Part shown: piece by piece, positions 44,281 through 59,983 of the stretch
How the letters are laid out: every line of letters starts with the position of its first letter
How positions within the stretch are numbered: position 1 is the first letter of the stretch
Assembly: GCA_020632265.1 (NCBI GenBank)
Contig: JACKFW010000001.1
Coordinates: 983,272-1,047,271, forward strand
Length of the DNA stretch: 64,000 bases
Source: Pseudomonadales bacterium
GTDB taxonomy: Bacteria; Patescibacteriota; Microgenomatia; UBA1400; PJMF01
Direction: 5' to 3'
Position numbers and translations under genes: made by a program
Notes under the pieces: model-generated
Databases searched by the model: none
The model's input: only the letters and a program-made list of their open reading frames with translations
What the model was told of the DNA's origin: nothing

Positions 44281-45543
44281 TTATTCTTTGATTATTTCAT
44301 TATCATCAATATTATTGATAATGGTTAATCCAGGATAAATTATTGTATTTTCACCAATTAATATTCCAGGCATAGTCTTTACTCCAATGCCTATTTTGAC
44401 GTAATTGCCCGTAATTATTCCCAAATTGTTAATTCCTGTTTCCATAAATTTATTTTTCACCAAAACTTTGATGTTTTTTCTATCTAATCTTTTGTTGGCT
44501 GTAATTAATCCAGCTCCAATTTTGGTTTGAAATCCAATAATGGAATCAGCAATATAGCCATAATGTATCGAAGAATTTTCAAAAAATATGCATCTAACTA
44601 CCTCTGATTTTGCGCCAATTATCACATTCTTTTCAATAGAGCTTCCACGAACAAAAGAATAGTCTCCTACTAGGCAATTTTTGCCTATATAGCAAGGACC
44701 AGAAATTTTACTAAAATCCCCAACTTTTGCACCTGAAGCAATGATTACGGGTCCTCTGGAGTCATCAATGATGGTGGTTTTTGAAATTGTGGCATCATTA
44801 GATATATTAGTTTTTTCATTTGTAATGATTTGGTTGAATGAATTGAATAAATGCCAAGGAAATTTAATACTTTTTATTTGTTCGTTACTTTTTATCCATG
44901 TAATATTGTTGTTTTTTGAGTATGATGTGATTGCGTTTTCTAGCGAATATTCATCGTCGGGAGTGTTGTTTAATTCTTGGATAAATTTTTTATCAAATAA
45001 GTAAACACTGTCGATTTTATATTTTGAAGGTTCTGTCCCTTTTTGAGGTTTTTCAATAATGCCTAAAACCTTAGCTGGGTTAGTTGGATCAAGATTTAAG
45101 ATTCCATATAATTCTGTATTTTCAGTTTGAGTTCCAGAAAAAACACAATTTGCTCCAGACTGATTTTTTTTATTCCAAAGAATTTCGGCTCTATCTCCTA
45201 AATTGAAGTAATATGGTGAAGATACTATGAAAAATTCATCTAAAAAGTCTTTTGCAACCAGTATCGCATCTCCCATTCCTTTGGGTTCATTTTGAAGCAC
45301 AACTTTAATATCTAATCCAAAGTCATTTTCTTTTAAATATTTACTGAAGCCTTGATCTCCATAATCTTTTTGTGAAACTACAATCACGACCTTTTGGTAA
45401 TTATTTTTTTTTAGATTTTCAAGAGCATGTGCGACAATTGGTTTTCCAACTAAGGTTGAAAATCCTTTGTGAGTTTGAGTATTGAGGGGATAAAATCTTG
45501 AGTTTTCTCCTCCGGCAATAATTAGAATTGTAGGTTTTTGCAT
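44281..45543 (-). CDS. Sugar-1-phosphate nucleotidyltransferase fused to a left-handed beta-helix domain (GlmU-like)
   Basis: N-terminal ILIIAGGENSRFYPL...GMGDAIL NTP-transferase motifs; C-terminal hexapeptide-repeat region. Confidence 0.7.
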   Translation of the reverse strand: MQKPTILIIAGGENSRFYPLNTQTHKGFSTLVGKPIVAHALENLKKNNYQKVVIVVSQKDYGDQGFSKYLKENDFGLDIKVVLQNEPKGMGDAILVAKDFLDEFFIVSSPYYFNLGDRAEILWNKKNQSGANCVFSGTQTENTELYGILNLDPTNPAKVLGIIEKPQKGTEPSKYKIDSVYLFDKKFIQELNNTPDDEYSLENAITSYSKNNNITWIKSNEQIKSIKFPWHLFNSFNQIITNEKTNISNDATISKTTIIDDSRGPVIIASGAKVGDFSKISGPCYIGKNCLVGDYSFVRGSSIEKNVIIGAKSEVVRCIFFENSSIHYGYIADSIIGFQTKIGAGLITANKRLDRKNIKVLVKNKFMETGINNLGIITGNYVKIGIGVKTMPGILIGENTIIYPGLTIINNIDDNEIIKE

Positions 45544-45593: not shown

Positions 45594-46361
45594 TTATGCT
45601 AAATAATCAAGTAAGAGTTTGTGTAATATTCCGTTTGAAGCGAGTGCCGATGTTGATTTAGTTGTTATCTTGTTGCCATCAATGTCAGTTACTTTTCCTC
45701 CGGCTTCTTGAATAATCACTAAAACAGCTGCAATATCCCAAATTTTTAGTTTTGCTTCAATAATTGCATCAAGTTTTCCTTCAGCGACAAATTGGTAACT
45801 CCAGGTATCTCCAAATCCTTTCATTCCAGCACAATCTTCGTTAATTTTTACTAATTTATTAAGTATTTCTAGTTTTTTGAAATACTTTAAACTTCCAATA
45901 CTAATATATGCATTTTTAATTTTATCGACTTTACTTACTTGAATTTTTTGAGTTTCATTCAGATAAGCTCCCTGACCTTTTTGGGCATAAACAAATTTTT
46001 TGAGCAATGGAGCATTAGAAATTCCCAAAATCAACTCTTCATCTTCGAATAGAGCTAGTTCTGTAGCAAACAAAGGAATATTTCTCGAGTAGTTTTTTGT
46101 TCCATCAATTGGATCAATCACCCAGGTATACTTTGATTTTTTTTGTGAGTCACCATACTCTTCACCAATGAAGCCATGATCTGGAAAGGCTGACGTGATA
46201 ATTTTTCTAATAATCTGTTCTGACTCTCTGTCTGCAATTGTGACAGGAGAACCATCTTTTTTTGTATCTATATTCAAATTAGTGTCAAAGTATTTCAATA
46301 CGATTTTTTGAGCTTCCTTGACTGCTTCTATTCCTGTTAATAAAAATTTACTCTTATCCAT
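45594..46361 (-). CDS. Inositol-monophosphatase family protein (IMPase/FBPase-type)
   Basis: WVIDPIDGTKNY and WDIAA...EAGG motifs. Confidence 0.8.
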   Translation of the reverse strand: MDKSKFLLTGIEAVKEAQKIVLKYFDTNLNIDTKKDGSPVTIADRESEQIIRKIITSAFPDHGFIGEEYGDSQKKSKYTWVIDPIDGTKNYSRNIPLFATELALFEDEELILGISNAPLLKKFVYAQKGQGAYLNETQKIQVSKVDKIKNAYISIGSLKYFKKLEILNKLVKINEDCAGMKGFGDTWSYQFVAEGKLDAIIEAKLKIWDIAAVLVIIQEAGGKVTDIDGNKITTKSTSALASNGILHKLLLDYLA

Positions 46362-46409: not shown

Positions 46410-47831
46410 CTAATCAAGTGCGTGAGTATTCACTCCCTGGCTCCAATCAATTTCTGGATATTTTTTGAGTATTCTATGTAAAATCTTTTTAACATCATCA
46501 TATTGCTCTCGAGTTTTACCTTCAAATTTTACTGTGATGTATGGACCATTTTGTGATGCTCTCACAATTGCCATTTCATTATTAGTGTCCATTCGAATGC
46601 CATCAATGTCAATATATTTTGCATTTGGCCACTGCGCTTCAAATTCAGACTTAATTTTTGTCTGAACAAATTCAAATTTTATATCATCGGCGAGTCCAAA
46701 CTTAATTTCTGGACTGCTAATATATTTTGATAATTTTGAGGCCGCTTGCGAAAGTGACTGATTTCTTCTTTCAAGATACGCCAAAAGTCTTAAGCTTGCA
46801 TAGGCGCCATCATCGTGTCCATAAAAATTATCCATGAAAAATATGTGTCCAGACAATTCGCCTCCAAAAGGCGCTCTTACTTCTTTTAGTTTGGCTTTAA
46901 TAAAGGAGTGTCCTGTCAGCCACATTACTGGTTCGCCTCCAGCTTTTTCGATTGTTTCTGTAACTTGGCGAGAACAAAGAGTATTGTAAACGATTTTCGA
47001 CCCCGGCATGAAGTCTAAGACATCTTTTGCAAAAAGTGCGACGATTGAGTCCATCCACAATACTTGACCTTGATCATCAACAACTGCCATTCTATCTCCG
47101 TCAGTATCGTAAGCAAAACCAATGTCAGCTTTGGCTTTTTTAACACCTTTGGCTAGTCGATCAAGGACTTCAATTTCAGTTGGATCTGGAACTCCTAAGG
47201 GAAAACTTCCATTTAGCTCAGTATTTTGTTCAATTACATCACAGCCCGCACTTCTCAAAACTTCTGGATAAAATTTTCCCGAAGTAGTGTTGCAAGCATC
47301 AACAACAATTCTCCATTTTTTATTTAAATTAAAGTGTTTTAAAATATCAGTTTTATATGCTGGGAAAATATCCTTTTCTCTATTCGTTCCTGTTCCTGTT
47401 GAGAATTCTCCTTTTTCGCAAAGTATTCTAAGATCTTGAATTTCTTCAGTGATCATGGTCTCAGAATAACCGATTGCCAATTTTAGACCATTATATTCTT
47501 TTGGATTATGAGATGCGGTGATCATTGCACCACCTTTGGTTTTGAATTCGTAAGAGGAAAAATACACAATTTGGCTTAATGAAAGACCTATATCGATTGT
47601 GTTGATTCCCCCATCATTGAGTCCTTTTATAAATGCTTTTGAATAAATTTCTCCAGTCAAGCGATTATCTCTTCCTACTGTTGCTTCTTTAATACGTCGT
47701 TGACTTAGAAACGTGGCATAAGCTCTAGCAAGGGTGTAATAAACATCTTCATTTAGGTCTACATCGGCAACACCTCTGATGTCGTAACCTCTAAAAATTG
47801 ATGAGTTGATATTTTTAACTAATTTGTACAT
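46410..47831 (-). CDS. Phosphoglucomutase/phosphomannomutase (alpha-D-phosphohexomutase)
   Basis: Active-site TASHNPKEYNG; metal-binding DTDGDR; sugar-binding GELSGH. Confidence 0.85.
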   Translation of the reverse strand: MYKLVKNINSSIFRGYDIRGVADVDLNEDVYYTLARAYATFLSQRRIKEATVGRDNRLTGEIYSKAFIKGLNDGGINTIDIGLSLSQIVYFSSYEFKTKGGAMITASHNPKEYNGLKLAIGYSETMITEEIQDLRILCEKGEFSTGTGTNREKDIFPAYKTDILKHFNLNKKWRIVVDACNTTSGKFYPEVLRSAGCDVIEQNTELNGSFPLGVPDPTEIEVLDRLAKGVKKAKADIGFAYDTDGDRMAVVDDQGQVLWMDSIVALFAKDVLDFMPGSKIVYNTLCSRQVTETIEKAGGEPVMWLTGHSFIKAKLKEVRAPFGGELSGHIFFMDNFYGHDDGAYASLRLLAYLERRNQSLSQAASKLSKYISSPEIKFGLADDIKFEFVQTKIKSEFEAQWPNAKYIDIDGIRMDTNNEMAIVRASQNGPYITVKFEGKTREQYDDVKKILHRILKKYPEIDWSQGVNTHALD

Positions 47832-47889: not shown

Positions 47890-47905
47890 GTATGAAAAAG
47901 TATGA
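47890..47905. promoter_or_regulatory. 16-mer GTATGAAAAAGTATGA upstream of the pgm-led operon, identical to the motif at 56753-56768
   Basis: Exact 16-nt identity between the two sites, seen directly. Confidence 0.4.
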
Positions 47906-48620: not shown

Positions 48621-49349
48621 TTAGTCCAGACTCAAGCCATTACGGTTGAGCCATCCTTTATGCTTCAGGTATTCTTGGTCATATTGTTTTACAAAATCCC
48701 AAAACTGTTTTGAATGATTCATGTGAACTAAATGTGACAATTCATGAATAATTACGTAATCAATGATACTAGTATCAAAATGTGCCAATCTCCAGTTGAA
48801 GTTCAAATTTTTCTGGCTTGAACAACTACCCCATCTAGTTTTTTGATTTTTTAACGTAATTTTATTAAAGCTTAAGTTCATGCTTTTTGCTAGCTCATGA
48901 GTTCTTTTGACAATATAATGACTAGCGGAGCTTTTTAAAAAATCATCAATCTTTTTTTTAAACTTTTTATTCAAATCAGTAACAACTTTTGCACTGCTTT
49001 TTTTCGGCATGGTAATTGGCATGGTAATCGGCATGGCAATTGGATTGAAAATAATTTTGTCTCCTCTCACATACACTCCCGACTTTTGATCTGCGGAATA
49101 AATAATTTTTTTCTGATATTTTTTTCCAAAAATGAAGGTAAATTGCTCTGAATCAAACTTTTTACTTTTTGAAGTTTTTTTAAGCGAATCCAAAATCCAT
49201 TGTTGATTTTTTTTGACAAAATGATCAATTATGAACTTAGGAACAAATTTTGGTGAGATCACAATTATTTTGCCATCCTGTTCAATTTTTAGTCTTAAAG
49301 ATTTTGAATTTTTATTGGTTTTATGAGTGTATTCAAATGGAATTATCAT
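48621..49349 (-). CDS. DUF45/YgjP-like (SprT-like) zinc metallopeptidase
   Basis: C-terminal IDYVIIHELSHLVHMNHSKQFW (HExxH...H); internal MPITMPITMP tandem repeat. Confidence 0.7.
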   Translation of the reverse strand: MIIPFEYTHKTNKNSKSLRLKIEQDGKIIVISPKFVPKFIIDHFVKKNQQWILDSLKKTSKSKKFDSEQFTFIFGKKYQKKIIYSADQKSGVYVRGDKIIFNPIAMPITMPITMPKKSSAKVVTDLNKKFKKKIDDFLKSSASHYIVKRTHELAKSMNLSFNKITLKNQKTRWGSCSSQKNLNFNWRLAHFDTSIIDYVIIHELSHLVHMNHSKQFWDFVKQYDQEYLKHKGWLNRNGLSLD

Positions 49350-50014
49350 TTTTGTATTAGATTTATAACTATATTAAGAAGATCAAATTGTATCAGAATA
49401 TTTTGAATATAGTTTGTTCCAACAATTAGAATTGTAGCAATAAATAAATCAATATTATGGGCAGTTGTTTCTTTAGTTTTTCCCAATCTAATTGCCATAA
49501 ATATGTTGATTAAAGTAGTTAGAGCAACAATTATCGCGGTTGCAATTAGAAAATTGACTTCGTCTCGTTTTATCCAATGCATACTTAGCTGGAATTCCAA
49601 GTCTTTTAAGTCAACTAAAACAAATTTAATTGATTCCCAAAATCCAATAAGTCCATGAACTGATAGCAACACCACAGCAATTTTATGCCACCAGTGAAAG
49701 AAGGCATGAGAAATTTTTTTAAGTTTAGTTTTTGAGTTTTTGGATATGGGTTCAATGATGGGTTTGACAAAACTTGATCCTGGCAGTGGCTGGTTAATTT
49801 GTGAAGTAGTTTGTGGCTGGTTAATTTGTGAAGTAGTTTGTGGCTGATTAATTTGAGGAGCAATTTGTGGCTGGTTAATTTGTGAAGTAGTTTGTGGCTG
49901 GTTAATTTGAGGAGTAATTTGTGGCTTAATAATAGAAGAAAAACCATGAGCTTTGGATACTGTATTTTTATTTTGATTAGGTTCTAGTTGAGTTGGGTTT
50001 TCTGCTAGGATCAT
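49346..50014 (-). CDS. Hypothetical membrane protein with N-terminal tandem octapeptide repeats (xxSQINQPQ)
   Basis: Six repeat units encoded by 24-bp tandem DNA repeats (about 49790-49935); C-terminal half has 3 TM helices. Confidence 0.45.
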   Translation of the reverse strand: MILAENPTQLEPNQNKNTVSKAHGFSSIIKPQITPQINQPQTTSQINQPQIAPQINQPQTTSQINQPQTTSQINQPLPGSSFVKPIIEPISKNSKTKLKKISHAFFHWWHKIAVVLLSVHGLIGFWESIKFVLVDLKDLEFQLSMHWIKRDEVNFLIATAIIVALTTLINIFMAIRLGKTKETTAHNIDLFIATILIVGTNYIQNILIQFDLLNIVINLIQK

Positions 50015-50173: not shown

Positions 50174-50258
50174 GCCGAAGTGGCGGAATTGGTATACGCG
50201 CACGGCTTAGAACCGTGTGGAGCAATCCTTGGAGGTTCAAGTCCTCTCTTCGGCACCA
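50174..50258 (+). tRNA. tRNA-Leu (anticodon TAG), long variable arm, CCA encoded
   Basis: GCCGAAGTGGCGGAATTGGTATACGCGCACGGCTTAGAACCGTGTGGAGCAATCCTTGGAGGTTCAAGTCCTCTCTTCGGCACCA; anticodon loop CTTAGAA; class II variable arm. Confidence 0.85.
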
Positions 50259-50260
50259 GT

Positions 50261-51073
50261 TTATAAGGGACTCTTGATATTTTTAAGTTTAGGATTAGTT
50301 ACTTTAGTATATATTTGCGTTGTTCTGATATTTTGGTGGCCCAATAACTCTTGCACATATCTTACGTCAGTTCCATTCTCTAGCAAATGCGTGGCAAAAG
50401 AGTGCCTTAGTGAATGAAAAGTGGCGATTTTTTTTATTCCTGAATCACGCAAGGCATTCTCGAAAACTTTTTGTGCCGTTCTTGTGGTTAGCTTTCCACC
50501 TCGTTCACTGGCAAAGACAGAATCGTCTCCTACCTTTCCTGCAGTTAAACTCCTCAAACTATCAGTCAAGCTTTCCGGTATGACGCTTATTCGGTCTTTT
50601 TGTCCTTTTGCTTGTTTGATGTGTACCACCAGTTCTTCAAGATCTAAATCTTGAACTTTTAGTGCAATAACTTCGCTTACTCTCAGTCCTGCACCATAAG
50701 CAAGTGATAACATAAGTTTATGTTTGGCATTCTTTACAGTTGTTAAAATTTTGTTTATCTCACTTCTGGATAAAACAATAGGTAAACTGTGTGGTTTTTT
50801 AGCTGATTGAATTTCAATTTTTTGTGAATTTTTTACAACATTGCGATAATAAAACTTAATAGCATTTAACAACAAATTTCTGCTTTGAGGTGAGATACGT
50901 TTTTTCTCACAGTGAAGTAGAAAATCTCTAATGTTTTCTTGATCAAGTTCTGTAAATTTATTGTTTTTGAAAGAAAAATACTTTCGTAAACTATAAAGGT
51001 AACTTTGTAAAGTTTTGGGACTGTAATTTTTAATTTTCAATTCACGTTTTGTTTTCTGAAGCTGTATTTGCAT
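50261..51073 (-). CDS. Tyrosine-type site-specific recombinase/integrase (XerD-like, 270 aa)
   Basis: Core-binding N-terminus (SPKTLQSY); catalytic box with R (LAYGAGLRVSE), HxxR (HSLRHSFAT) and terminal Y (IRTTQIYTKV). Confidence 0.85.
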   Translation of the reverse strand: MQIQLQKTKRELKIKNYSPKTLQSYLYSLRKYFSFKNNKFTELDQENIRDFLLHCEKKRISPQSRNLLLNAIKFYYRNVVKNSQKIEIQSAKKPHSLPIVLSRSEINKILTTVKNAKHKLMLSLAYGAGLRVSEVIALKVQDLDLEELVVHIKQAKGQKDRISVIPESLTDSLRSLTAGKVGDDSVFASERGGKLTTRTAQKVFENALRDSGIKKIATFHSLRHSFATHLLENGTDVRYVQELLGHQNIRTTQIYTKVTNPKLKNIKSPL

Positions 51074-51415
51074 AAGTTATTGAAAATGATTAAAATTGAT
51101 GTAGTTTTTGCAGATTTGAATTTATCATAACTTCGTATAACATACAAATTATTATTTAATTTATGAAAATATATCGTATAAAAATGAGTTAGGCAAAATT
51201 CGCTTCCAACGAGAGCTATTTAGTATTGAAAATATTACTATTCCTTGAACCCTTGCTTTTTATTATTGCACTTTTTCTTTCACCCAAATTTCGCCTCTTC
51301 TATGATAAAATAATAATGAAGTCGGCGAAACTTCTCATGCACGCAAACGTTATACGCCATAATAAAAAGCAATTTGATATAATTTTGGCAATAAATAAAA
51401 GGAGGTGTGAAAAAA

Positions 51416-51939
51416 TGATCGAGAAAAAACCATATAGTATATTAGAGGCACGAGAAACGTTAGATCCACAAAAAGGTAAAGATGCTTTAGCTAAAGCAAT
51501 GTTTCAGCTAATAAGCCTACATGAAGGTCGTATAGATAATCAATCTAAACAAGCATATGTTGAGGCTTGTATTGATGCTTTTGCTAATGGTGTGTACTTT
51601 GAAAAGTTTTGGCAATGTATAGGCCAGGCATTTTCAAATGGGCCAAAAGCATTCCACGAGATGGATTGGCAAAAAGCATTAAACCCTAGTCCCGACACAA
51701 GACCAAGTGAACCAGATTGGAATATTACCGATGATCGTTATGATGGAAATGCTAGAGAAGTATTACAAGTAGCCCTCTCTGAAACCAAAGCATCATTTAA
51801 AAATCTTAAGCCAGGTGATGAAAAAGAAGGCAATTTTTTTCAAAGTATTTTTAATTTAGGCAATTCTGCAATAGGGTTGTTTAGAGGAGGAATGAGTAAA
51901 GCTGAGATTTTATCATCCCTCACTGATCAAGATAAATAA
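51416..51939 (+). CDS. Hypothetical protein (island), 174 aa
   Basis: Start chosen at MIEKKPY, preceded by AAAGGAGGTG RBS. The track ORF extends to 51226. Confidence 0.45.
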
Positions 51940-52307
51940 TTGCCAAAATTATTAAGAACAAGGATAAATTGGCTTTTTATTACGTCCCCGCATACGCTGC
52001 GACCACGCTGCGCTCTTCGGGTCATATAACACGACATATACGGTTCGTCGGTCGCTAACGCTGCCTCACCCATATTTTTTGCCCTTTCTTTCTGATAAAA
52101 TAATAAGGAAGCGGGCAAAAAACATCGCATATGCAGGAACGTTGTCCGACATATTTTTCTGAAAATTTTTGCAAGAAGAATGTTGAAGGATTACAATAAA
52201 GGAAGAAATTTTGATTTTTATTATTTTATGAGGGGGATAAAGGGCGTTTTCACTTGTTCCGTTCCTTCACAATTGAAAAATTATTTATAAATTTAAAAGG
52301 ATAAATT

Positions 52308-53171
52308 ATGGAAAAACCAAAAATACCTGAAGAATTAATACAAAGGAAAATCCCTATTGACGTCTTTGACGCTTCGGTGATATCCCAAAGAGGTGAAATT
52401 GTTGATGTTACTTCATTAATTCCAGCTCGTGAAGGTGAAGATAGAGATTTATTTCAGAGCCAAGTGCAAAGAGTTTTTGACTGGGTTGCAGAAACAATGA
52501 ATTCTCCTGAATATGCTAAATTTGAAATTGAAATTGGAAATATGTTGGCAGAAGTCAAAGGTCAGCACTTCATTTTTGATATTGAAGGTGTTGTGATGAA
52601 TGATGTCCAAAATCAGGTAGATTCGTCTGAAAGAGTTTATCATGTGGTGCCTTGGATGCAACCGTTACTCAAGAAGCTAATTGAAAATGGTAATCAAGTA
52701 GGATTTTGGACTTCTGCAACAGCAGAAAGTTTAGAAAAGATGAGAAAAGCAATGAGTTCAGAATTGGCTGGACTACCAGCCATAAGTATTGAGGATTGGG
52801 GAAAAGTAGCATTAGCCTATAAAGCACAAAGACTCGGCCAGATGACTGACGAGCAGGTGATTGGAGTTATGCAATCAATCTATCCCACCGCAAGTTGGAA
52901 GACTTTTCAAGCTGGACTAGAGATATTTGATGAGGATATGATCGATAACTTCGACGACGACCCGATCTTTTTTTTGAGAGGAAGTAAATATCCACAACTT
53001 TTTATTCCTCCAGAAAACGGATTTTTTGTTGACGACAACAATATGTTTATTGAAAGTGCCAAGAGACATGGCTGGCCCAAACATAGAGCTATAAAAAGTA
53101 GCTATTTTCCCCAGAAAGGAGATGTTTTAAAAGTTGCTCAATATATAAAAGAAGGAATGGAACAGCAATAA
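52308..53171 (+). CDS. HAD-superfamily NT5C-like 5'(3')-deoxyribonucleotidase-like protein with D-x-E variant motif I
   Basis: HFIFDIEGVVMND (motif I-like), VGFWTSAT (motif II), FFVDDN (motif IV); preceded by AAAAGGA RBS. Confidence 0.45.
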   Translation: MEKPKIPEELIQRKIPIDVFDASVISQRGEIVDVTSLIPAREGEDRDLFQSQVQRVFDWVAETMNSPEYAKFEIEIGNMLAEVKGQHFIFDIEGVVMNDVQNQVDSSERVYHVVPWMQPLLKKLIENGNQVGFWTSATAESLEKMRKAMSSELAGLPAISIEDWGKVALAYKAQRLGQMTDEQVIGVMQSIYPTASWKTFQAGLEIFDEDMIDNFDDDPIFFLRGSKYPQLFIPPENGFFVDDNNMFIESAKRHGWPKHRAIKSSYFPQKGDVLKVAQYIKEGMEQQ

Positions 53172-53736: not shown

Positions 53737-54585
53737 TTAGTTTGAAATTGAATATGTAGCCGATTCCAAAGCCGAATCTTTAGCCGATTCCAAAGCCGAA
53801 TCTTTAGCCGATTCCAAAGCCGAATCTGAAGCATCAACAAATTCCAACAAGTCTGCTTCTTCTTTATTCTTTATTCCAGATTTTCGGTCGTCATATCTCA
53901 TTTCAGCCATCCACTGATTGATTGAATCTGCCCAACTACCATTACTTGGCGGTGTATATTTTTTCATGATTTTATATGGCGTATCCAAACCTATGTCAAT
54001 ATAATTTTTTTTAAGTGTCTTCGCAGCTTGCTCAAAATTCGCTTCAAAACTGGAAAATTTTGTAACAGTTTGTCCGTATACTCCAAAGCCTAAACAATTA
54101 AATGATTCAATAATATTGCCGTTCTCGTCAGTAGGTTTAGGTGTTTTAACACACAAGTTGCTTTCTTGCATTGCAATAGCTGGTAAAAGTCGAAAATCTA
54201 AATTATATTTATCTGCAAGTTCAACGAAAAATTTGCCAAAGTATTCTTCTGGAACAAGTGGATGGTGTAAATTTCTAGTTTCGCCGTTGTATCTTTTTAA
54301 AAAGTTAGTGATAATTAGAGCTCTGGCATCTTCAGTTTCTACAATTGTTGTTGCCCCTAAAATTTCTTCGCTATTACCGTTTGCTTGACCAATAGAAATT
54401 GCAACATTTTCGTCATAACTATCATTTTCTAGATAAGCTACGATATTATCTTTGTAGAAAGAATAACCGGCAATTGTGGTTACAATTACCCCAGCAGACA
54501 ATAAAAACCAGGCAAAAACAAAGAATAATGATTTCATAAGTATTTTAAACAACAGTAGTATACCAAATATTGTGAACATTGACAT
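53737..54585 (-). CDS. Membrane-anchored protein with possible lysozyme-like/lytic-transglycosylase-like domain and C-terminal DSALESAK repeats
   Basis: N-terminal TM helices; LPAIAMQESN block reminiscent of the SLT-domain catalytic E-S region; three 24-bp tandem repeats at the 3' end (53758-53830). Confidence 0.35.
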   Translation of the reverse strand: MSMFTIFGILLLFKILMKSLFFVFAWFLLSAGVIVTTIAGYSFYKDNIVAYLENDSYDENVAISIGQANGNSEEILGATTIVETEDARALIITNFLKRYNGETRNLHHPLVPEEYFGKFFVELADKYNLDFRLLPAIAMQESNLCVKTPKPTDENGNIIESFNCLGFGVYGQTVTKFSSFEANFEQAAKTLKKNYIDIGLDTPYKIMKKYTPPSNGSWADSINQWMAEMRYDDRKSGIKNKEEADLLEFVDASDSALESAKDSALESAKDSALESATYSISN

Positions 54586-54617: not shown

Positions 54618-55691
54618 ATGATAATAAAAAAATTGATGTTTTTAGCCAGTTTAATTTGCATAATGTTATTACACAGCGTGAGCGAAGTGAGTGCTTTTGA
54701 ATTCTCCAAGTTGGGTGTTCATATTTTAAATGTTTCTGAACTAAAAGACGCTAAAGATCTAGTTATACCTATATCAACTGATATTCTTGGGGTAAATTCT
54801 CAAGAAATATTACCCACTGTTTACGAAGATTGGAATTATGTGACAGTACCAATTACTTTTGACGATATTGAGGATCATAAAGAGTTGGATTGGCAACTAT
54901 TTTTTGATAATGCCAAAACTATGAAGGTTATACCAATTGTTAGATTAACTACAAAATATTCTTTAGAAGATAAAGCTTGGGTGGTTCCAAATAAAAAACA
55001 AATAATTACTCAGTTAGATTTTCTCTCAAAGCTAAATTGGCCTACTGAACAGCGAAACATTATAGTTTTTAATGAAGTTAACCATGCAGCAGAATGGGGA
55101 GGAAAAGTTAATCCACAAGAATACACACAAATTTTGAAATTTGTGAGCAATTGGGCTCACACCGAGGGAAAAAATTATGTAGTTTTACCTGCAGCTATGG
55201 ATTTAGCAGTTCCAAATTCCTCGATTTCATTTGAAGCCTTTAATTATTTAAATCAAATGTATGCAGAGGATCCAGAAATATTTTCGTATGTCGATATTTG
55301 GAATTCGCACTCATATCCTAATCCAGGATTTATTAGTTCTCCCACAAAATATGGCAAGAATTCCTTAAGAGGCTTTGAATATGAATTAGACTATTTGAAA
55401 GCAAAAACTGGTGAAGAATATAAGGTGATGATTACCGAAACAGGTTGGATGGAAACGAAGGCAACTTCAAGATGGTTGAGCTCTTATTATACTTATGCGA
55501 TGCAGCACATTTGGTCAGATGATAGAGTTGTGGCGGTAACTCCATTTTTGCTTAAGGGTGCTCCAGGACCTTTTGCAGGCTTTAGTTTTTATGATGAAAA
55601 TGATCAACCCACCAATCAGTTCCATGCTTTCAAAGCAGCATTACAAAAAATTTCCGAAATCGATTTTCCAAAAGTTAGTTATAAAAATTAA
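54618..55691 (+). CDS. Secreted clan GH-A (TIM-barrel) glycoside hydrolase-like protein
   Basis: Signal peptide; IVFNEVNHAAEWGG (acid/base NE) and MITETGW (nucleophile E) spaced as in GH-A families (GH5/GH1-like). Confidence 0.5.
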   Translation: MIIKKLMFLASLICIMLLHSVSEVSAFEFSKLGVHILNVSELKDAKDLVIPISTDILGVNSQEILPTVYEDWNYVTVPITFDDIEDHKELDWQLFFDNAKTMKVIPIVRLTTKYSLEDKAWVVPNKKQIITQLDFLSKLNWPTEQRNIIVFNEVNHAAEWGGKVNPQEYTQILKFVSNWAHTEGKNYVVLPAAMDLAVPNSSISFEAFNYLNQMYAEDPEIFSYVDIWNSHSYPNPGFISSPTKYGKNSLRGFEYELDYLKAKTGEEYKVMITETGWMETKATSRWLSSYYTYAMQHIWSDDRVVAVTPFLLKGAPGPFAGFSFYDENDQPTNQFHAFKAALQKISEIDFPKVSYKN

Positions 55692-56647: not shown

Positions 56648-56789
56648 AAAATTGTCCGTAATTAGATGTATTCCTTATATTTATTTTTCAATCGATCTAA
56701 AAATATTTTAACAAACTAAAATTAAGATTACATTTGTAACTCGCACTTTAAATGTATGAAAAAGTATGATAATTTTATTTTATCAGAAA

Positions 56790-57605
56790 ATGAAGACCAA
56801 AACGCGCCTTACTATCACTCTTTCCCAAGATTTATTATCTAGAGTAGATTCATTAATTGATGGTCATACTATTCGAAGCCGCTCTCATTCAATTGAAAAT
56901 TTGGTTAGACAAAGTTTATTAGCTAGTGTTGGTACAGCAGTTATTCTAGCCGGTGGTGATAGAAAAAACCAAGAAATCCCCTCTTTAAAAAAGATAGGCA
57001 ATCGCTATGTTCTTTCGATAATGATTGATCAACTAAAAATATTTGGAATTTCTCATATTGTAATTTGTGCTGGCGTTAATGAAGCCAAAATAAAAAGCGT
57101 CTTTGCTGATGGAGCTTCATATGGAGTTAAGATTGTTTACAGTAGTGAAAAAAACCCACTTGGTTCTGCGGGCACTATCAAAAATGCTGAGAAATTAATC
57201 GGCAACGGTTCTTTTTTGGTGATAAACGACAACACTCTCACCAACTTAAACCTCAATGATTTGTTTGAGTTTCATCTGGTGGAGGACTCAATCGCCACGA
57301 TATGTGTAAAACCAAGAATGAGTGAAGAAAAATATGGTCAGGCATTTTTGCATGGCAATAAAATTGTCAAATTTCTGGACAAATCCAAGCACGAAGGCAT
57401 CAGTATTGTTAATATTGGCATGTATGTTTTGAAACCTGAAGTTTTTGAGTTGATTGCAAAATATAAATATCTAAATTTAGAGACAGATATATTTCCAAAG
57501 TTGGCTCGAGAAAAAGAACTAAGCGCATTTGTTTTTCAAGGAAATTGGTTTGATGCCTCAAAAGATCAGTCATATAAGGAAGCTGTCGAGAATTGGAAAG
57601 ATTAA
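56790..57605 (+). CDS. Ribbon-helix-helix (NikR/CopG-like) DNA-binding domain fused to sugar-1-phosphate nucleotidyltransferase domain
   Basis: TRLTITLSQDLLSRVDSLIDGHTIRSRSHSIENLVRQSL matches the NikR-type RHH pattern (beta-strand, then helix-turn-helix with RS(E/H)xIRxxL). Downstream AVILAGGDRK...PLGSAGTI are NTP-transferase motifs. Start chosen at MKTKTRL; the track ORF starts at 56766. Confidence 0.6.
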   Translation: MKTKTRLTITLSQDLLSRVDSLIDGHTIRSRSHSIENLVRQSLLASVGTAVILAGGDRKNQEIPSLKKIGNRYVLSIMIDQLKIFGISHIVICAGVNEAKIKSVFADGASYGVKIVYSSEKNPLGSAGTIKNAEKLIGNGSFLVINDNTLTNLNLNDLFEFHLVEDSIATICVKPRMSEEKYGQAFLHGNKIVKFLDKSKHEGISIVNIGMYVLKPEVFELIAKYKYLNLETDIFPKLAREKELSAFVFQGNWFDASKDQSYKEAVENWKD

Positions 57606-57624: not shown

Positions 57625-58587
57625 ATGGAAGACTCATTAGCATTATCTTTATCTCACGCAACTGAAGTTGGTGCCATTGAAGCTTCCAGGACTGCAGGTT
57701 TTGGCGACAAAAAGAAGGCGGACCAAAAAGCAGTTGAAGCAATGCGAACCTATTTTAATGAACTAGATTTTAATGGTCGAATTGTTATTGGTGAAGGTGA
57801 AAGAGATGAAGCCCCTATGCTTTTTATTGGTGAAAAATTGGGGACCGGTAAAGGTAAAGCAATCGATATCGCTGTTGATCCTTTGGAAAATACCAACGCG
57901 ACTGCAGTTTTTGGTCCGGGAGCAATTGCAGTTTTAGCTGCCAGCGAAAGAGGCGGATTATTTCATGCTCCAGATATGTATATGGATAAATTGATTGTGC
58001 CCGAAGAAGCAGCCGGTAAAGTTGATATTGATTGGGAACCTCAAAGGAACTTGAAGGCAATTGCTAAAGGTTTAGATCGCCATGTTTCTGATTTGGTGAT
58101 CGTGATTCTAGATCGAGAAAGAAATGAAGAGCTGATCGCAAATGTTAGAGGGGCTGGCGCTAGAGTTAAATTGATTAGTGATGGAGACTTAATTCCAGGC
58201 GTGGAAGCTTGTATGAGAGGATCTGGAGTGCATGGAGTCATGGGAATAGGTGCTGCGCCTGAAACAGTGATTACAGCCGCCGCAATGAGATGTTTAAAGG
58301 GTGAGCTTCAAGCCAGATTTTGGCCAAAAAGCGAAGAAGAAAGAAAACGACTTATGAAAATGGGTGGAAAACTTGATAAAGTATATACACAGAATGATTT
58401 AGCTAGTGGTAAGACCGCAATCTTTTGTGCTACTGGGGTCACTGAAGGTTCAATACTTAAAGGAGTGAGATTTTTTGGTTCTGGTGCAAGAACACATACT
58501 TTAATGATGTCTACTCAAAGCAAAAAAATTCGTTTTATTGATACTACTCATGTTTTTAATCATGATGATATTAAATTTAGACTTTAA
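57625..58587 (+). CDS. glpX: Fructose-1,6-bisphosphatase class II GlpX
   Basis: GFGDKKKADQKAVEAMR, IVIGEGERDEAPMLFIGEKLG, DIAVDPLENT, APDMYMDKLIV; near-colinear with E. coli GlpX. Confidence 0.9.
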   Translation: MEDSLALSLSHATEVGAIEASRTAGFGDKKKADQKAVEAMRTYFNELDFNGRIVIGEGERDEAPMLFIGEKLGTGKGKAIDIAVDPLENTNATAVFGPGAIAVLAASERGGLFHAPDMYMDKLIVPEEAAGKVDIDWEPQRNLKAIAKGLDRHVSDLVIVILDRERNEELIANVRGAGARVKLISDGDLIPGVEACMRGSGVHGVMGIGAAPETVITAAAMRCLKGELQARFWPKSEEERKRLMKMGGKLDKVYTQNDLASGKTAIFCATGVTEGSILKGVRFFGSGARTHTLMMSTQSKKIRFIDTTHVFNHDDIKFRL

Positions 58588-58651: not shown

Positions 58652-59983
58652 ATGGTTGATACAAATGAGATAGACAAATTAGTATATTCGGCAGTCTTTG
58701 GATCTGAAGAAGAAAAACAAGATTCAAGATATCAAATTTGGAAATTAGGAGTCGATAATGGCGTATTTTGTGCTTCAATCAATGATTTATATATGGCTCG
58801 TGGTAGAGGTGAATTGCCAAATGATTTTACAGTACCAGCAATGAATGTTAGAGGCATGAACTATGATTTGTCTAGAGGAATTTTTAAAGTTGCTAAGGAA
58901 AAAAACGTTGGAGCGATGATTTTCGAAATTGCGAGATCTGAAATGGGTTATACCGATCAATCCCCTTTTGAATATACGACTGTGGTAACTGCAGCAGCTT
59001 TAAGAGAAGGTTGGTCTGGTCCACTATTTATACAAGGAGATCATATTCAAGCAAAAGCTGAATCAATGGGAGTTATAAAAGAGGGTGAGATTGAAGCAAT
59101 TAAGGATTTAATTAGTCAGTGCATAGCCGGTGGTTTTTATAATATTGACATTGATATGTCAACCTTAGTTGACTTAGACAAGGAAGATGTTTTTGAGCAA
59201 CAAGAGCCAAATGTTAAATATTCTGTCGAGTTAGCTCAGTTTATTAGAGAAATTCAACCAGATGGTATTGAAATTTCCATTGGCGGAGAAATTGGACATA
59301 TTGGTGGAAGAAATAGTACCACTGAAGATTTTGTAGCTTTTATTTCAGGATTTAATGATAGATTGCCAAAGGGATTAGTGGGAATAAGTAAGATTAGTGT
59401 TGCAACTGGTACCTCTCATGGAGGTGTAGTTTTGGCCGATGGCACTTTGGCAGATATTGATGTAGATTTTTCGATTCTTTCAAATATTTCTAAAATTTGT
59501 AGGAATAATTATCAAATTGGTGGCGCAGTTCAACATGGCGCTTCTACTCTACCTGATGAATTTTTTAGCCAATTTCCAAAATCAGAAGCTATTGAAGTGC
59601 ATTTAGCAACTGGATTTCAAAATTTGCAGATGAATCATCCAAATTTTCCCAAAGATTTATTGAATAAAATGTATGCTTGGCTTGATGAAACTAAGCGAGC
59701 TGAAAGAAAAGAAGGTCAAACTGACGAGCAATTTCATTATGAGTTAAGAAAGAAAGCTTGGGGAAAATTTAAAAAAGAATGTTGGGATATTGATGAAAAG
59801 AACAAAACTGAAATTAGAAAATCTATCTCAGAGAGAGTTGAATTTTTATTTGGAGAGATAAATGTTTTTGATACTGCTGAAATGGTTAATTCAATTGTGA
59901 AACCAAATGTGGTCGACAAGGAAAAATCAGATTTTGCACCTTGGGGATCTAAAATTAAAGATGTAATTGGTTTGTCAGACTAA
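58652..59983 (+). CDS. fba: Class II fructose-bisphosphate aldolase (long FbaA type)
   Basis: TVPAMNVRG...AMIFEIARSE, FIQGDHIQ (metal His), ATGTSHGGV blocks. Confidence 0.65.
   Translation: MVDTNEIDKLVYSAVFGSEEEKQDSRYQIWKLGVDNGVFCASINDLYMARGRGELPNDFTVPAMNVRGMNYDLSRGIFKVAKEKNVGAMIFEIARSEMGYTDQSPFEYTTVVTAAALREGWSGPLFIQGDHIQAKAESMGVIKEGEIEAIKDLISQCIAGGFYNIDIDMSTLVDLDKEDVFEQQEPNVKYSVELAQFIREIQPDGIEISIGGEIGHIGGRNSTTEDFVAFISGFNDRLPKGLVGISKISVATGTSHGGVVLADGTLADIDVDFSILSNISKICRNNYQIGGAVQHGASTLPDEFFSQFPKSEAIEVHLATGFQNLQMNHPNFPKDLLNKMYAWLDETKRAERKEGQTDEQFHYELRKKAWGKFKKECWDIDEKNKTEIRKSISERVEFLFGEINVFDTAEMVNSIVKPNVVDKEKSDFAPWGSKIKDVIGLSD

Follow-up and report, generated by a model that had tools for sequence, protein, structure and literature searches.

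A ribbon-helix-helix protein with a nucleotidyltransferase-like domain and its predicted GTATGA direct-repeat operator in Patescibacteria

The fusion gene and its family

We analyzed a 64,000-nucleotide stretch of contig JACKFW010000001.1 (the whole stretch is called the window here), which carries the gene of a putative transcriptional regulator of 271 residues. The protein begins MKTKTRL and consists of a NikR/CopG-type ribbon-helix-helix (RHH) domain (residues 1–47) followed by a sugar-1-phosphate nucleotidyltransferase (NTase) fold (residues 48–271). Its open reading frame (ORF), and the peptides quoted from it in an earlier note on this DNA, were present in the sequence. The gene (located from the ORF list and the raw sequence), its two domains and two copies of a predicted operator are as follows.

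56790–57605, plus strand: regulator gene, 271 aa
56790–56930, plus strand: RHH domain, residues 1–47 (strand R6-L-T8-I-T10-L, helix A 13–22, N30/R31/S32 turn, helix B 31–43)
56931–57605, plus strand: NTase-like (GT-A/Rossmann) putative sensor domain, residues 48–271 and the stop codon (Pfam, AlphaFold2 and Foldseek)
56754–56769, plus strand: predicted operator 1, GTATGAaaaaGTATGA, in which GTATGA is directly repeated at a 10-bp period; 20 nt lie between its end and the regulator ATG
47890–47905, plus strand: predicted operator 2, identical GTATGAaaaaGTATGA, intergenic, 59 nt upstream of a minus-strand phosphomannomutase operon

The ATG at 56790 is the favoured start in an alignment of homologues, which start MKTK or MR(T/S)K; the ORF could also begin at 56766, which would lengthen it. 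The start at 56753 given in the earlier note had to be abandoned, as that position holds no start codon in the regulator frame and the interval takes in the GTATGAAAAAGTATGA site at 56754–56769.

When the regulator was searched against Pfam, NTP_transferase was matched over residues 66–268 (E=2e-24, from profile position 25), and RHH_1 was matched with E=0.022, under the gathering score. The NCBIfam NikR models matched residues 2–44 only, at ~2e-4 and far under their own cut-offs; mannose-1-phosphate guanylyltransferase-like models matched from profile position 33. An AlphaFold2 monomer model (mean predicted local distance difference test score, pLDDT, 83.7; predicted template modelling score, pTM, 0.78) had residues 5–11 extended, helices at 13–22 and 31–43, and then the Rossmann-like NTase fold, which is the order of RHH-type helices and NTase fold that a structure prediction had been expected to give. 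The pLDDT of the N-terminal 40 residues was lower (63–77), as would be expected of an obligate dimer element modelled as a monomer.

A search of 5.8 billion proteins gave 247 protein clusters of this fusion, nearly all of ~270 aa and covered over their full length, several of which already bear a precomputed RHH_1 match. In a scan with one genome per species, relatives were found encoded in 459 genomes. Within the Patescibacteria (candidate phyla radiation, CPR), the fusion occurs in Pace-, Woese-, Gottesman- and Roizmanbacteria and in Microgenomates. Outside the Patescibacteria it occurs in Chloroflexota, Acidobacteriota (Thermoanaerobaculia), Planctomycetota, Zixibacteriota, Verrucomicrobiota and one ‘archaeon’. 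The nearest relatives of the window protein are from Pacebacteria/Patescibacteria, in agreement with a patescibacterial origin of the DNA. An assembly or frameshift artefact as the source of the fusion was ruled out, because these clusters and genomes represent hundreds of independent assemblies with a single uninterrupted ~270-aa ORF.

The earlier note had not recognised the architecture as described, and no published account of the domain combination or of the motif was found in open-access papers and bioRxiv. RHH repressors, enzyme-derived sensors and pseudo-NTases are known already; the novelty lies in how they are put together, in the geometry of the operator and in the inferred regulon.

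Several metagenome-assembled genomes (MAGs) labelled ‘uncultured Pseudomonadales’ or ‘Gammaproteobacteria’ (L008, L009, L011, L012, L015 and other ‘binchicken’/SRP-coassembly MAGs) encode 50–70% identical proteins and share their gene order with Patescibacteria. These labels are probably placeholders or errors.

The DNA-binding head and the GTATGA repeats

A profile was built from 34 N-terminal segments of the family and searched against the PDB. It matched the RHH domain of Escherichia coli NikR (1q5v) with E=6.6e-9, Pyrococcus horikoshii NikR with E=2.6e-5 and CopG with E=2.6e-4, and all 34 segments matched Pfam RHH_1 (best, 1.1e-7). The proposed NikR/CopG-like head was thereby confirmed: NTP_transferase had been clear on the single protein, and RHH became clear once the family profile was used. 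HMMER aligned the strand RVTITL of NikR with RLTITL of the family. A toxin–antitoxin RHH was considered and rejected; the weak HicB-like and BrnA matches reflect the shared RHH fold only, and the gene is without a toxin partner and stands in a housekeeping context.

Residue conservation and column entropy were counted over 184 non-redundant family members. R6, T8, R31, S32 and E36 were invariant (184/184), and I9, T10 and D20 were retained in 183 of the 184. E. coli NikR has identical residues at the positions of R6, T8 and T10. In the NikR–DNA structure, R3, T5 and T7 contact bases of GTATGA.

In the window, exact GTATGA-N4-GTATGA occurs only at the two sites listed above; 0.04 were expected, and none of 100 shuffles reached two. 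Hexamers were then counted without bias in the 200 nt that precede each of 79 homologues, with random segments of the same loci as background. GTATGA was the top hexamer by both count and enrichment, being found in 51 of the 79 upstream regions against 5.5% of the background (11.6-fold), and its reverse complement had only 10 occurrences in these regions. The site GTATGAAAAAGTATGA, proposed as the DNA target from the window alone, is thus the conserved predicted operator of the family. Exactly 10 bp separated the copies in 41 GTATGA pairs; 35 loci had two copies, four had three and one had four. The arrangement GTATGA-N4-GTATGA spans Patescibacteria, Chloroflexota, Acidobacteriota, Planctomycetota and Zixibacteriota; the homologue loci, 750 kb together, hold 55 exact sites where ~0.1 were expected. 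Single GTATGA hexamers in the window (24, with 26.9 expected) and operators with two mismatches (6, with 5.3 expected) were at chance level; the sites claimed in the window were limited to the two exact matches.

When metagenomes were scanned independently by the motif alone, at least 120 loci were obtained. Among the 120 listed, 15 sites lay inside an ORF, compared with 57 ± 4 for random positions, and 18 loci carried the family gene.

The operator consensus is wwwaGTATGAnAAAGTATGAyA, located 19–41 nt after TTGAC. A separate TTGACA-N17-TAnnnT promoter often stands ahead of the repeats, with most sites at or just past the −10/start region; two loci (L026 and L044) read TTGACA-N17-TATGAT-N8-GTATGA. 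Operator 2 is just downstream of a promoter-like site, TTGACC-N17-TAAATT (minus strand, 47942–47914). Because the sites lie at or just downstream of the −10/start, binding would be expected to repress.

Might the repeats instead belong to the promoter or be bound by a different factor, with the RHH serving for oligomerisation only? GTATGAT does contain the −10-like TATGAT, and the binding of the regulator to the repeats is a prediction. We give this reading very little credence, since many loci have a separate −35/−10 pair ahead of the repeats, as in the two loci just named, and the motif accompanies the gene in several phyla, as well as in archaeal contigs that have TATA-like boxes. The return of the family gene among loci selected by the motif alone argues in the same direction. 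Moreover, the family shares its DNA-reading residues with NikR and does not vary in them, and the NikR half-site is this very hexamer; a search of the window found no second NikR-type RHH encoded there.

The published operator of E. coli NikR is GTATGA-N16-TCATAC (PMC7055735), and the enterobacterial consensus is GTATGAT-N13/14-ATCATAC (PMC545781). The hexamer of the family is the E. coli half-site, a coincidence that fits the identity of the DNA-reading residues. NikR is also the nearest sequence relative of the head, with the R-x-T-I-T-L strand, the NRS turn and the GTATGA half-site common to both. Each has an N-terminal RHH, a short linker and a C-terminal ligand-sensing domain (putative in the regulator), and both are likely tetramers. 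The two differ in the C-terminal part, which is an ACT-like tetramerisation/nickel domain in NikR and an NTP_transferase fold of 224 residues in the regulator; in the operator, whose half-sites are inverted and 16 bp apart for NikR but direct repeats with a 10-bp period for the family; and in the regulon, nickel uptake for NikR and, as set out below, sugar-phosphate and nucleoside diphosphate (NDP)-sugar metabolism for the family.

RHH dimers of MetJ, Arc, CopG and omega bind cooperatively on adjacent repeats, and MetJ uses a small-molecule co-repressor. The family resembles them in placing an RHH on tandem repeats, and CopG is a direct profile match. They are, however, small single-domain proteins, none with an enzyme-fold sensor.

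Decay of the nucleotidyltransferase active site

The NTP_transferase fold assigned in the earlier note was confirmed. Besides the Pfam match and the AlphaFold2 model, the family profile found GDP-mannose pyrophosphorylases as its nearest matches in the PDB (E about 1e-35, with matches at 5e-36), and Foldseek with the model gave tlr0611, GMPPB, VTC1 and HddC as the best matches (E about 1e-20, TM 0.70–0.74). The elements expected of an NTase fold, LGTAG, NxGxY and GxWxD, were all found in the family.

In active enzymes of this fold, the signature G-x-G-T-R-(L/F)-x-P-(L/I)-T-x3-P-K grips the phosphates of the nucleoside triphosphate (NTP) through a catalytic Arg and Lys, the lysine of an E-K-P motif contacts the sugar phosphate, and the Asp of an (N/H)-G-D motif binds the metal. 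The AVILAGG motif pointed out earlier is present in the window protein, but the canonical catalytic loop G-T-R-L-x-P-L-T does not come after it. GGDRKN-QEIPSLKK stands in place of the signature; in the HMMER alignment, a six-residue gap falls opposite LRPLTL of the GDP-mannose pyrophosphorylase loop GGxGTRLRPLT...PKP, and no G-T-R is found. The degenerate loop comprises residues 57–63 (56958–56978). Over the 184 members, these seven positions after GG had column entropies of 3.3–3.8 bits and are essentially free. The column of the EKP lysine is occupied by Ser in 53 members, Thr in 41 and Lys in 39. The metal-binding Asp (position 148) is kept in 149 of the 184; it is N148 in the window protein and S, T or N in its closest relatives, the segment reading VINDN in the window protein instead of VIHGD.

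Other parts of the domain are conserved in the 184 members, namely E120, G125-(S/T)-A-G128 and K174-P175, N208-x-G210-x-Y212 and E231/D233/F235/P236, and F249-Q-G-x-W253-x-D255. The phosphate-gripping catalytic residues are gone, the base- and sugar-side pocket is kept, and the DNA-binding head is invariant; this pattern points to a pseudoenzyme sensor. The NTase domain of the window's clade is most likely a non-catalytic ligand sensor. Of the earlier proposal, in which a metabolic-enzyme domain was the sensor or effector module, the NTase fold as candidate sensor stands, and the catalytic signature is lost in this clade.

Relatives that retain all the catalytic motifs are encoded on metagenome contigs to which the operator motif led (L089, L143, L121, L150, L185, L194 and L119), and these proteins are nearest to the one encoded at the ‘archaeon’ locus, which is likewise intact (L084, 4998–5834). 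Their motifs are GG(K/R)GTRL(R/K)PLT...PK, VEKP, NGD and GQWFDIG. One of the contigs, L089, encodes an archaeal-type GluRS (530 bits, over the cut-off). With NCBIfam, the NTase match of the archaeal form has 186 bits and begins at profile position 2; that of the window protein has 86 bits and begins at position 33. Members from Gottesman- and Roizmanbacteria are intermediate, keeping the loop length, R-P-x-T..PK and EKP, with the Thr changed. The loop deletion marks the window's clade, which includes Pace-/Woesebacteria, Chloroflexota, Acidobacteriota and Planctomycetota. Judged by their motifs, the archaeal members are probably bifunctional enzyme-repressors.

Could the window protein, too, still be an active NTase, the occupancy of its site by substrate or product setting its affinity for DNA, as in BirA, NadR and PutA? 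The intact motifs of the archaeal members and the features retained in Gottesman-/Roizmanbacteria speak for it, as do the basic residues of the window protein near the lost motifs (R58/K59, K67/K68 and K198). PutA offers a precedent of an RHH fused to active enzymes; in trifunctional PutA, it is joined to proline dehydrogenase/P5C dehydrogenase and repression is autogenous (PMC5293562). We nevertheless consider continued catalysis by the window protein rather unlikely. The loop of its clade is six residues shorter and unconstrained, the EKP-lysine column is a mixture of Ser, Thr and Lys, the metal-binding Asp is replaced in the window protein and its closest relatives, and the predicted regulated operon contains a separate NTase with a canonical-type signature. 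The likeness to PutA, BirA and NadR lies in a DNA-binding domain joined to an enzyme fold of the pathway that it regulates or, here, would regulate, and the archaeal clade is probably alike in this. The family differs from PutA in enzyme fold and pathway and in that the enzyme of the window's clade has degenerated to a probable pure sensor; PutA switches by flavin redox state and membrane binding.

Non-catalytic NTase paralogues that share the fold are known, among them GMPPA, GalF, eIF2B gamma/epsilon and the large subunits of ADP-glucose pyrophosphorylase. By structure and by profile, the regulator is matched best by proteins of the GMPPB/GMPPA type. The paralogues do not catalyse but have retained the binding of product, which serves feedback: GMPPA binds GDP-mannose and holds GMPPB in check (PMC11228364). 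Such proteins are without a DNA-binding domain and regulate partner enzymes by protein contact, whereas the regulator would wire the sensing to transcription.

In six Gottesman-/Roizmanbacteria loci (L072, L077–L079, L082 and L083), the protein starts with MDR(E/D/Q)RL 5–10 nt past a TATAAT/TACAAT box, and these mRNAs may be leaderless. No GTATGA repeats were found near these starts, and the regulators may not be autoregulated.

Predicted target operons and a proposed circuit

The genes that follow the two predicted operators in the window are listed below.

57625–58587, plus strand: glpX, class II fructose-1,6-bisphosphatase (FBPase) (Pfam FBPase_glpX, E=5e-125; TIGR00330, 339 bits, over the cut-off)
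58652–59983, plus strand: class II fructose-bisphosphate aldolase-like gene (Pfam F_bP_aldolase, E=5e-13), third gene of the likely operon
46410–47831, minus strand: phosphoglucomutase/phosphomannomutase, PgmG/GlmM-like (NCBIfam PgmG-like, E=9e-108; archaeal GlmM, E=1e-90), first gene of the predicted second target operon
45594–46361, minus strand: inositol-monophosphatase/FBPase/HisN-family phosphatase (NCBIfam HisN, E=9e-74, under the cut-off; bifunctional FBPase/IMPase, E=5e-40), second gene
44281–45543, minus strand: archaeal-type GlmU-like bifunctional sugar-1-phosphate nucleotidyltransferase/acetyltransferase (NCBIfam TIGR03992, E=2e-72, 244 bits)

The regulator had been noted to adjoin glpX and class II fba, and both are indeed directly downstream on the same strand. 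The glpX gene is co-directional, starts 19 nt after the regulator stop and is likely to be an operon member and a target of the regulator. Operator 2 sits between holA and the minus-strand mutase operon. This mutase-side site is conserved in L001, L006, L007, L012, L013, L014 and L017, including mutases that are only 33% identical. Operator sites stand before the mutase gene in 8 genomes, before glpX in 2 (L007 and L009) and before pgk in 2 (L047 and L068). With glpX and the phosphatase at 45594–46361, the regulon may contain two different FBPase-type enzymes. The GlmU-like protein (MQKPTILIIAGGENSRFYPLNTQTHKGF), whose gene is the only other NTase-family match in the window, bears a signature resembling the canonical one, G-x-x-S-R-F-x-P-L ... 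H-K; it is a candidate for the active NTase of this stretch and may supply the effector as its product.

The genes that recur beside the regulator gene on the same strand are the following.

glpX, directly downstream: 12 loci
fba, downstream: 16 loci
pgk: 11 loci
iPGM: 9 loci
PMT_2 glycosyltransferase: 8 loci

From the metagenome scan, only recurrent neighbour families were counted. Among the matches listed, the largest clusters of adjacent genes were the family itself (14) and glpX (7), and hexokinase (2), pgk (1), a UXS-like gene (1) and a GH63-like hydrolase gene (1) were also adjacent. The earlier suggestion that sugar-nucleotide status is tied to transcription at the gluconeogenic exit gains support from the regulon inferred here, which comprises glpX, fba, pgk and the phosphomannomutase and hexokinase genes.

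In the archaeal contigs, the regulator and mutase genes are divergent from glpX and a class I aldolase gene across the operator GTATGATAAAGTATGATA, which TATA-like boxes flank; in L089 the mutase gene is directly behind the regulator gene. The archaeal aldolase is of class I (DhnA-type), non-orthologous to the class II form that takes the same place elsewhere. The same functional gene set in another order, with a non-orthologous aldolase, is strong evidence of a functional link.

Some further features of the neighbourhood were observed. The aldolase of the window is long (443 aa) and very divergent (Pfam 49.6 bits; NCBIfam cbbA 34 bits with a cut-off of 216); nonetheless it is conserved beside glpX in 16 loci. 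At 54618–55691 is the gene of a 357-aa signal-peptide protein with a weak Glyco_hydro_cc match only (via the homologue in L019). In 17 loci, a conserved copy immediately precedes the regulator gene in the same orientation, and the protein may belong to the same sugar-related neighbourhood. Two ORFs, 49346–50014 and 53737–54585 (both minus strand), are repeat-rich: one has PQINQPQTTSQINQ-type tandem peptide repeats, and the other, in which a membrane anchor is followed by three copies of DSALESAK at the C terminus, has relatives conserved upstream in 17 loci. A tRNA-Leu (50174–50258) adjoins a tyrosine-recombinase-like ORF (50261–51073, minus strand) and two ORFs without assigned function (51226–51939 and 52308–53171). 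The block 50174–53171 is probably an integrated mobile element, because L001, a relative with synteny elsewhere, lacks it.

We consider it probable that the regulator is a one-component repressor of hexose-phosphate and NDP-sugar supply, with a pseudoenzyme sensor and an NDP-sugar as co-repressor. The N-terminal RHH would dimerise, and its two-stranded sheet, with the NikR-like R-x-T-x-T residues, would read the GTATGA hexamer. Two dimers would occupy two hexamers one helical turn apart, probably bridged by the C-terminal domains, and binding at or just past the −10/start region would block transcription. One target would be the regulator's own operon, with glpX and the fructose-bisphosphate aldolase gene (autoregulation), and a second in this genome would be the operon of the phosphomannomutase, the phosphatase and the GlmU-like nucleotidyltransferase; in relatives, pgk, hexokinase and a separately promoted glpX would be added. 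The NTase-like domain would bind a nucleotide-sugar end product (of UDP-hexosamine/hexose or GDP-mannose type), which would act as co-repressor and give feedback on hexose-phosphate and NDP-sugar supply. All support for the repressor is comparative. The comparisons establish the domain architecture, the pattern of conservation, and the operator motif with its positions and neighbouring genes; from these we infer that the protein binds DNA, that it represses rather than activates, that catalysis was lost, and which kind of ligand acts and in what sense.

The effector logic might also be the opposite, with a precursor (sugar-1-phosphate, UTP or GTP) acting as inducer, or with activation at some promoters. 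The sugar-binding half of the domain is the best conserved (E231, D233, F235, P236 and the F249–D255 segment), and the mutase-side site, inverted and close to a −35-like element, fits a different mode of action there. Such a logic appears improbable, as the regulon runs towards biosynthesis (FBPase, aldolase, pgk, mutase and the GlmU-like enzyme), which suits end-product feedback, and most sites are at or after the −10, in the position of a repressor. The part of the domain that was lost is the triphosphate-gripping loop, which argues against an NTP as the ligand.

Several observations weigh against the repressor circuit as proposed here. A scan with the sigma-70 consensus upstream of the window regulator gave nothing convincing near the operator, so the overlap with a promoter is drawn from other loci and from the mutase promoter. 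About 30 of 81 homologue loci are without GTATGA within 110 nt upstream; in some of them the gene follows pgk, and a site either lies at a greater distance upstream or was not found. When degenerate sites were sought before pgk-linked or Gottesmanbacteria-type homologues, almost nothing was found; autoregulation is therefore not universal in the family. Operator 2 is inverted relative to its mutase gene. Many of the metagenome matches listed adjoin phage-like, integrase or unrelated genes, and these are probably chance or noise. Lastly, basic residues remain near the lost motifs of the window protein (in GGDRKN, LKK and FLDKSK), and some residual activity is possible.

CggR (SorC family), HexR and Cra are repressors of central glycolytic or gluconeogenic genes with enzyme-derived sugar-phosphate sensors. 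Their role is analogous to that proposed for the regulator, in that a pathway metabolite controls pgk, fba and FBPase-type genes. Both domains are unrelated, however (helix-turn-helix heads, and isomerase, SIS or periplasmic-binding-protein-like sensors), and so are the operators.

In a broader reading, towards which we lean slightly, the family is an unrecognised group of bacterial and archaeal transcription factors that puts a NikR-type head, acting on direct repeats, together with a sugar-nucleotide pyrophosphorylase, and would serve ultra-small, uncultivated organisms as the main transcriptional switch of hexose-phosphate supply and of sugar-nucleotide supply for the cell envelope. Its members would form a series from enzyme-repressor to pseudoenzyme; going by their motifs, the archaeal (DPANN-like) members look active, those of Gottesman-/Roizmanbacteria intermediate, and those of Pace-/Woesebacteria, Chloroflexota and Acidobacteriota like pseudoenzymes.

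Regulation in the Patescibacteria and in DPANN-like archaea is almost uncharted, these organisms being uncultivated and having few recognisable regulators. Here, sequence by itself yields a circuit that can be tested, with a regulator, its DNA-reading residues, a 16-bp operator, a promoter position and a coherent regulon. The sugar-nucleotide pyrophosphorylase fold would join the enzyme folds recruited as sensors of transcription factors, and the intact and decayed versions together offer a natural series for the passage from enzyme-repressor to pseudoenzyme sensor. The reuse of the NikR head and hexamer in a different repeat geometry informs the rules of RHH–DNA recognition. If the proposal is true, the compact NDP-sugar-responsive repressor and its operator could be used as a biosensor, and the circuit would be among the first at the level of a regulon that can be written for ultra-small uncultivated organisms.

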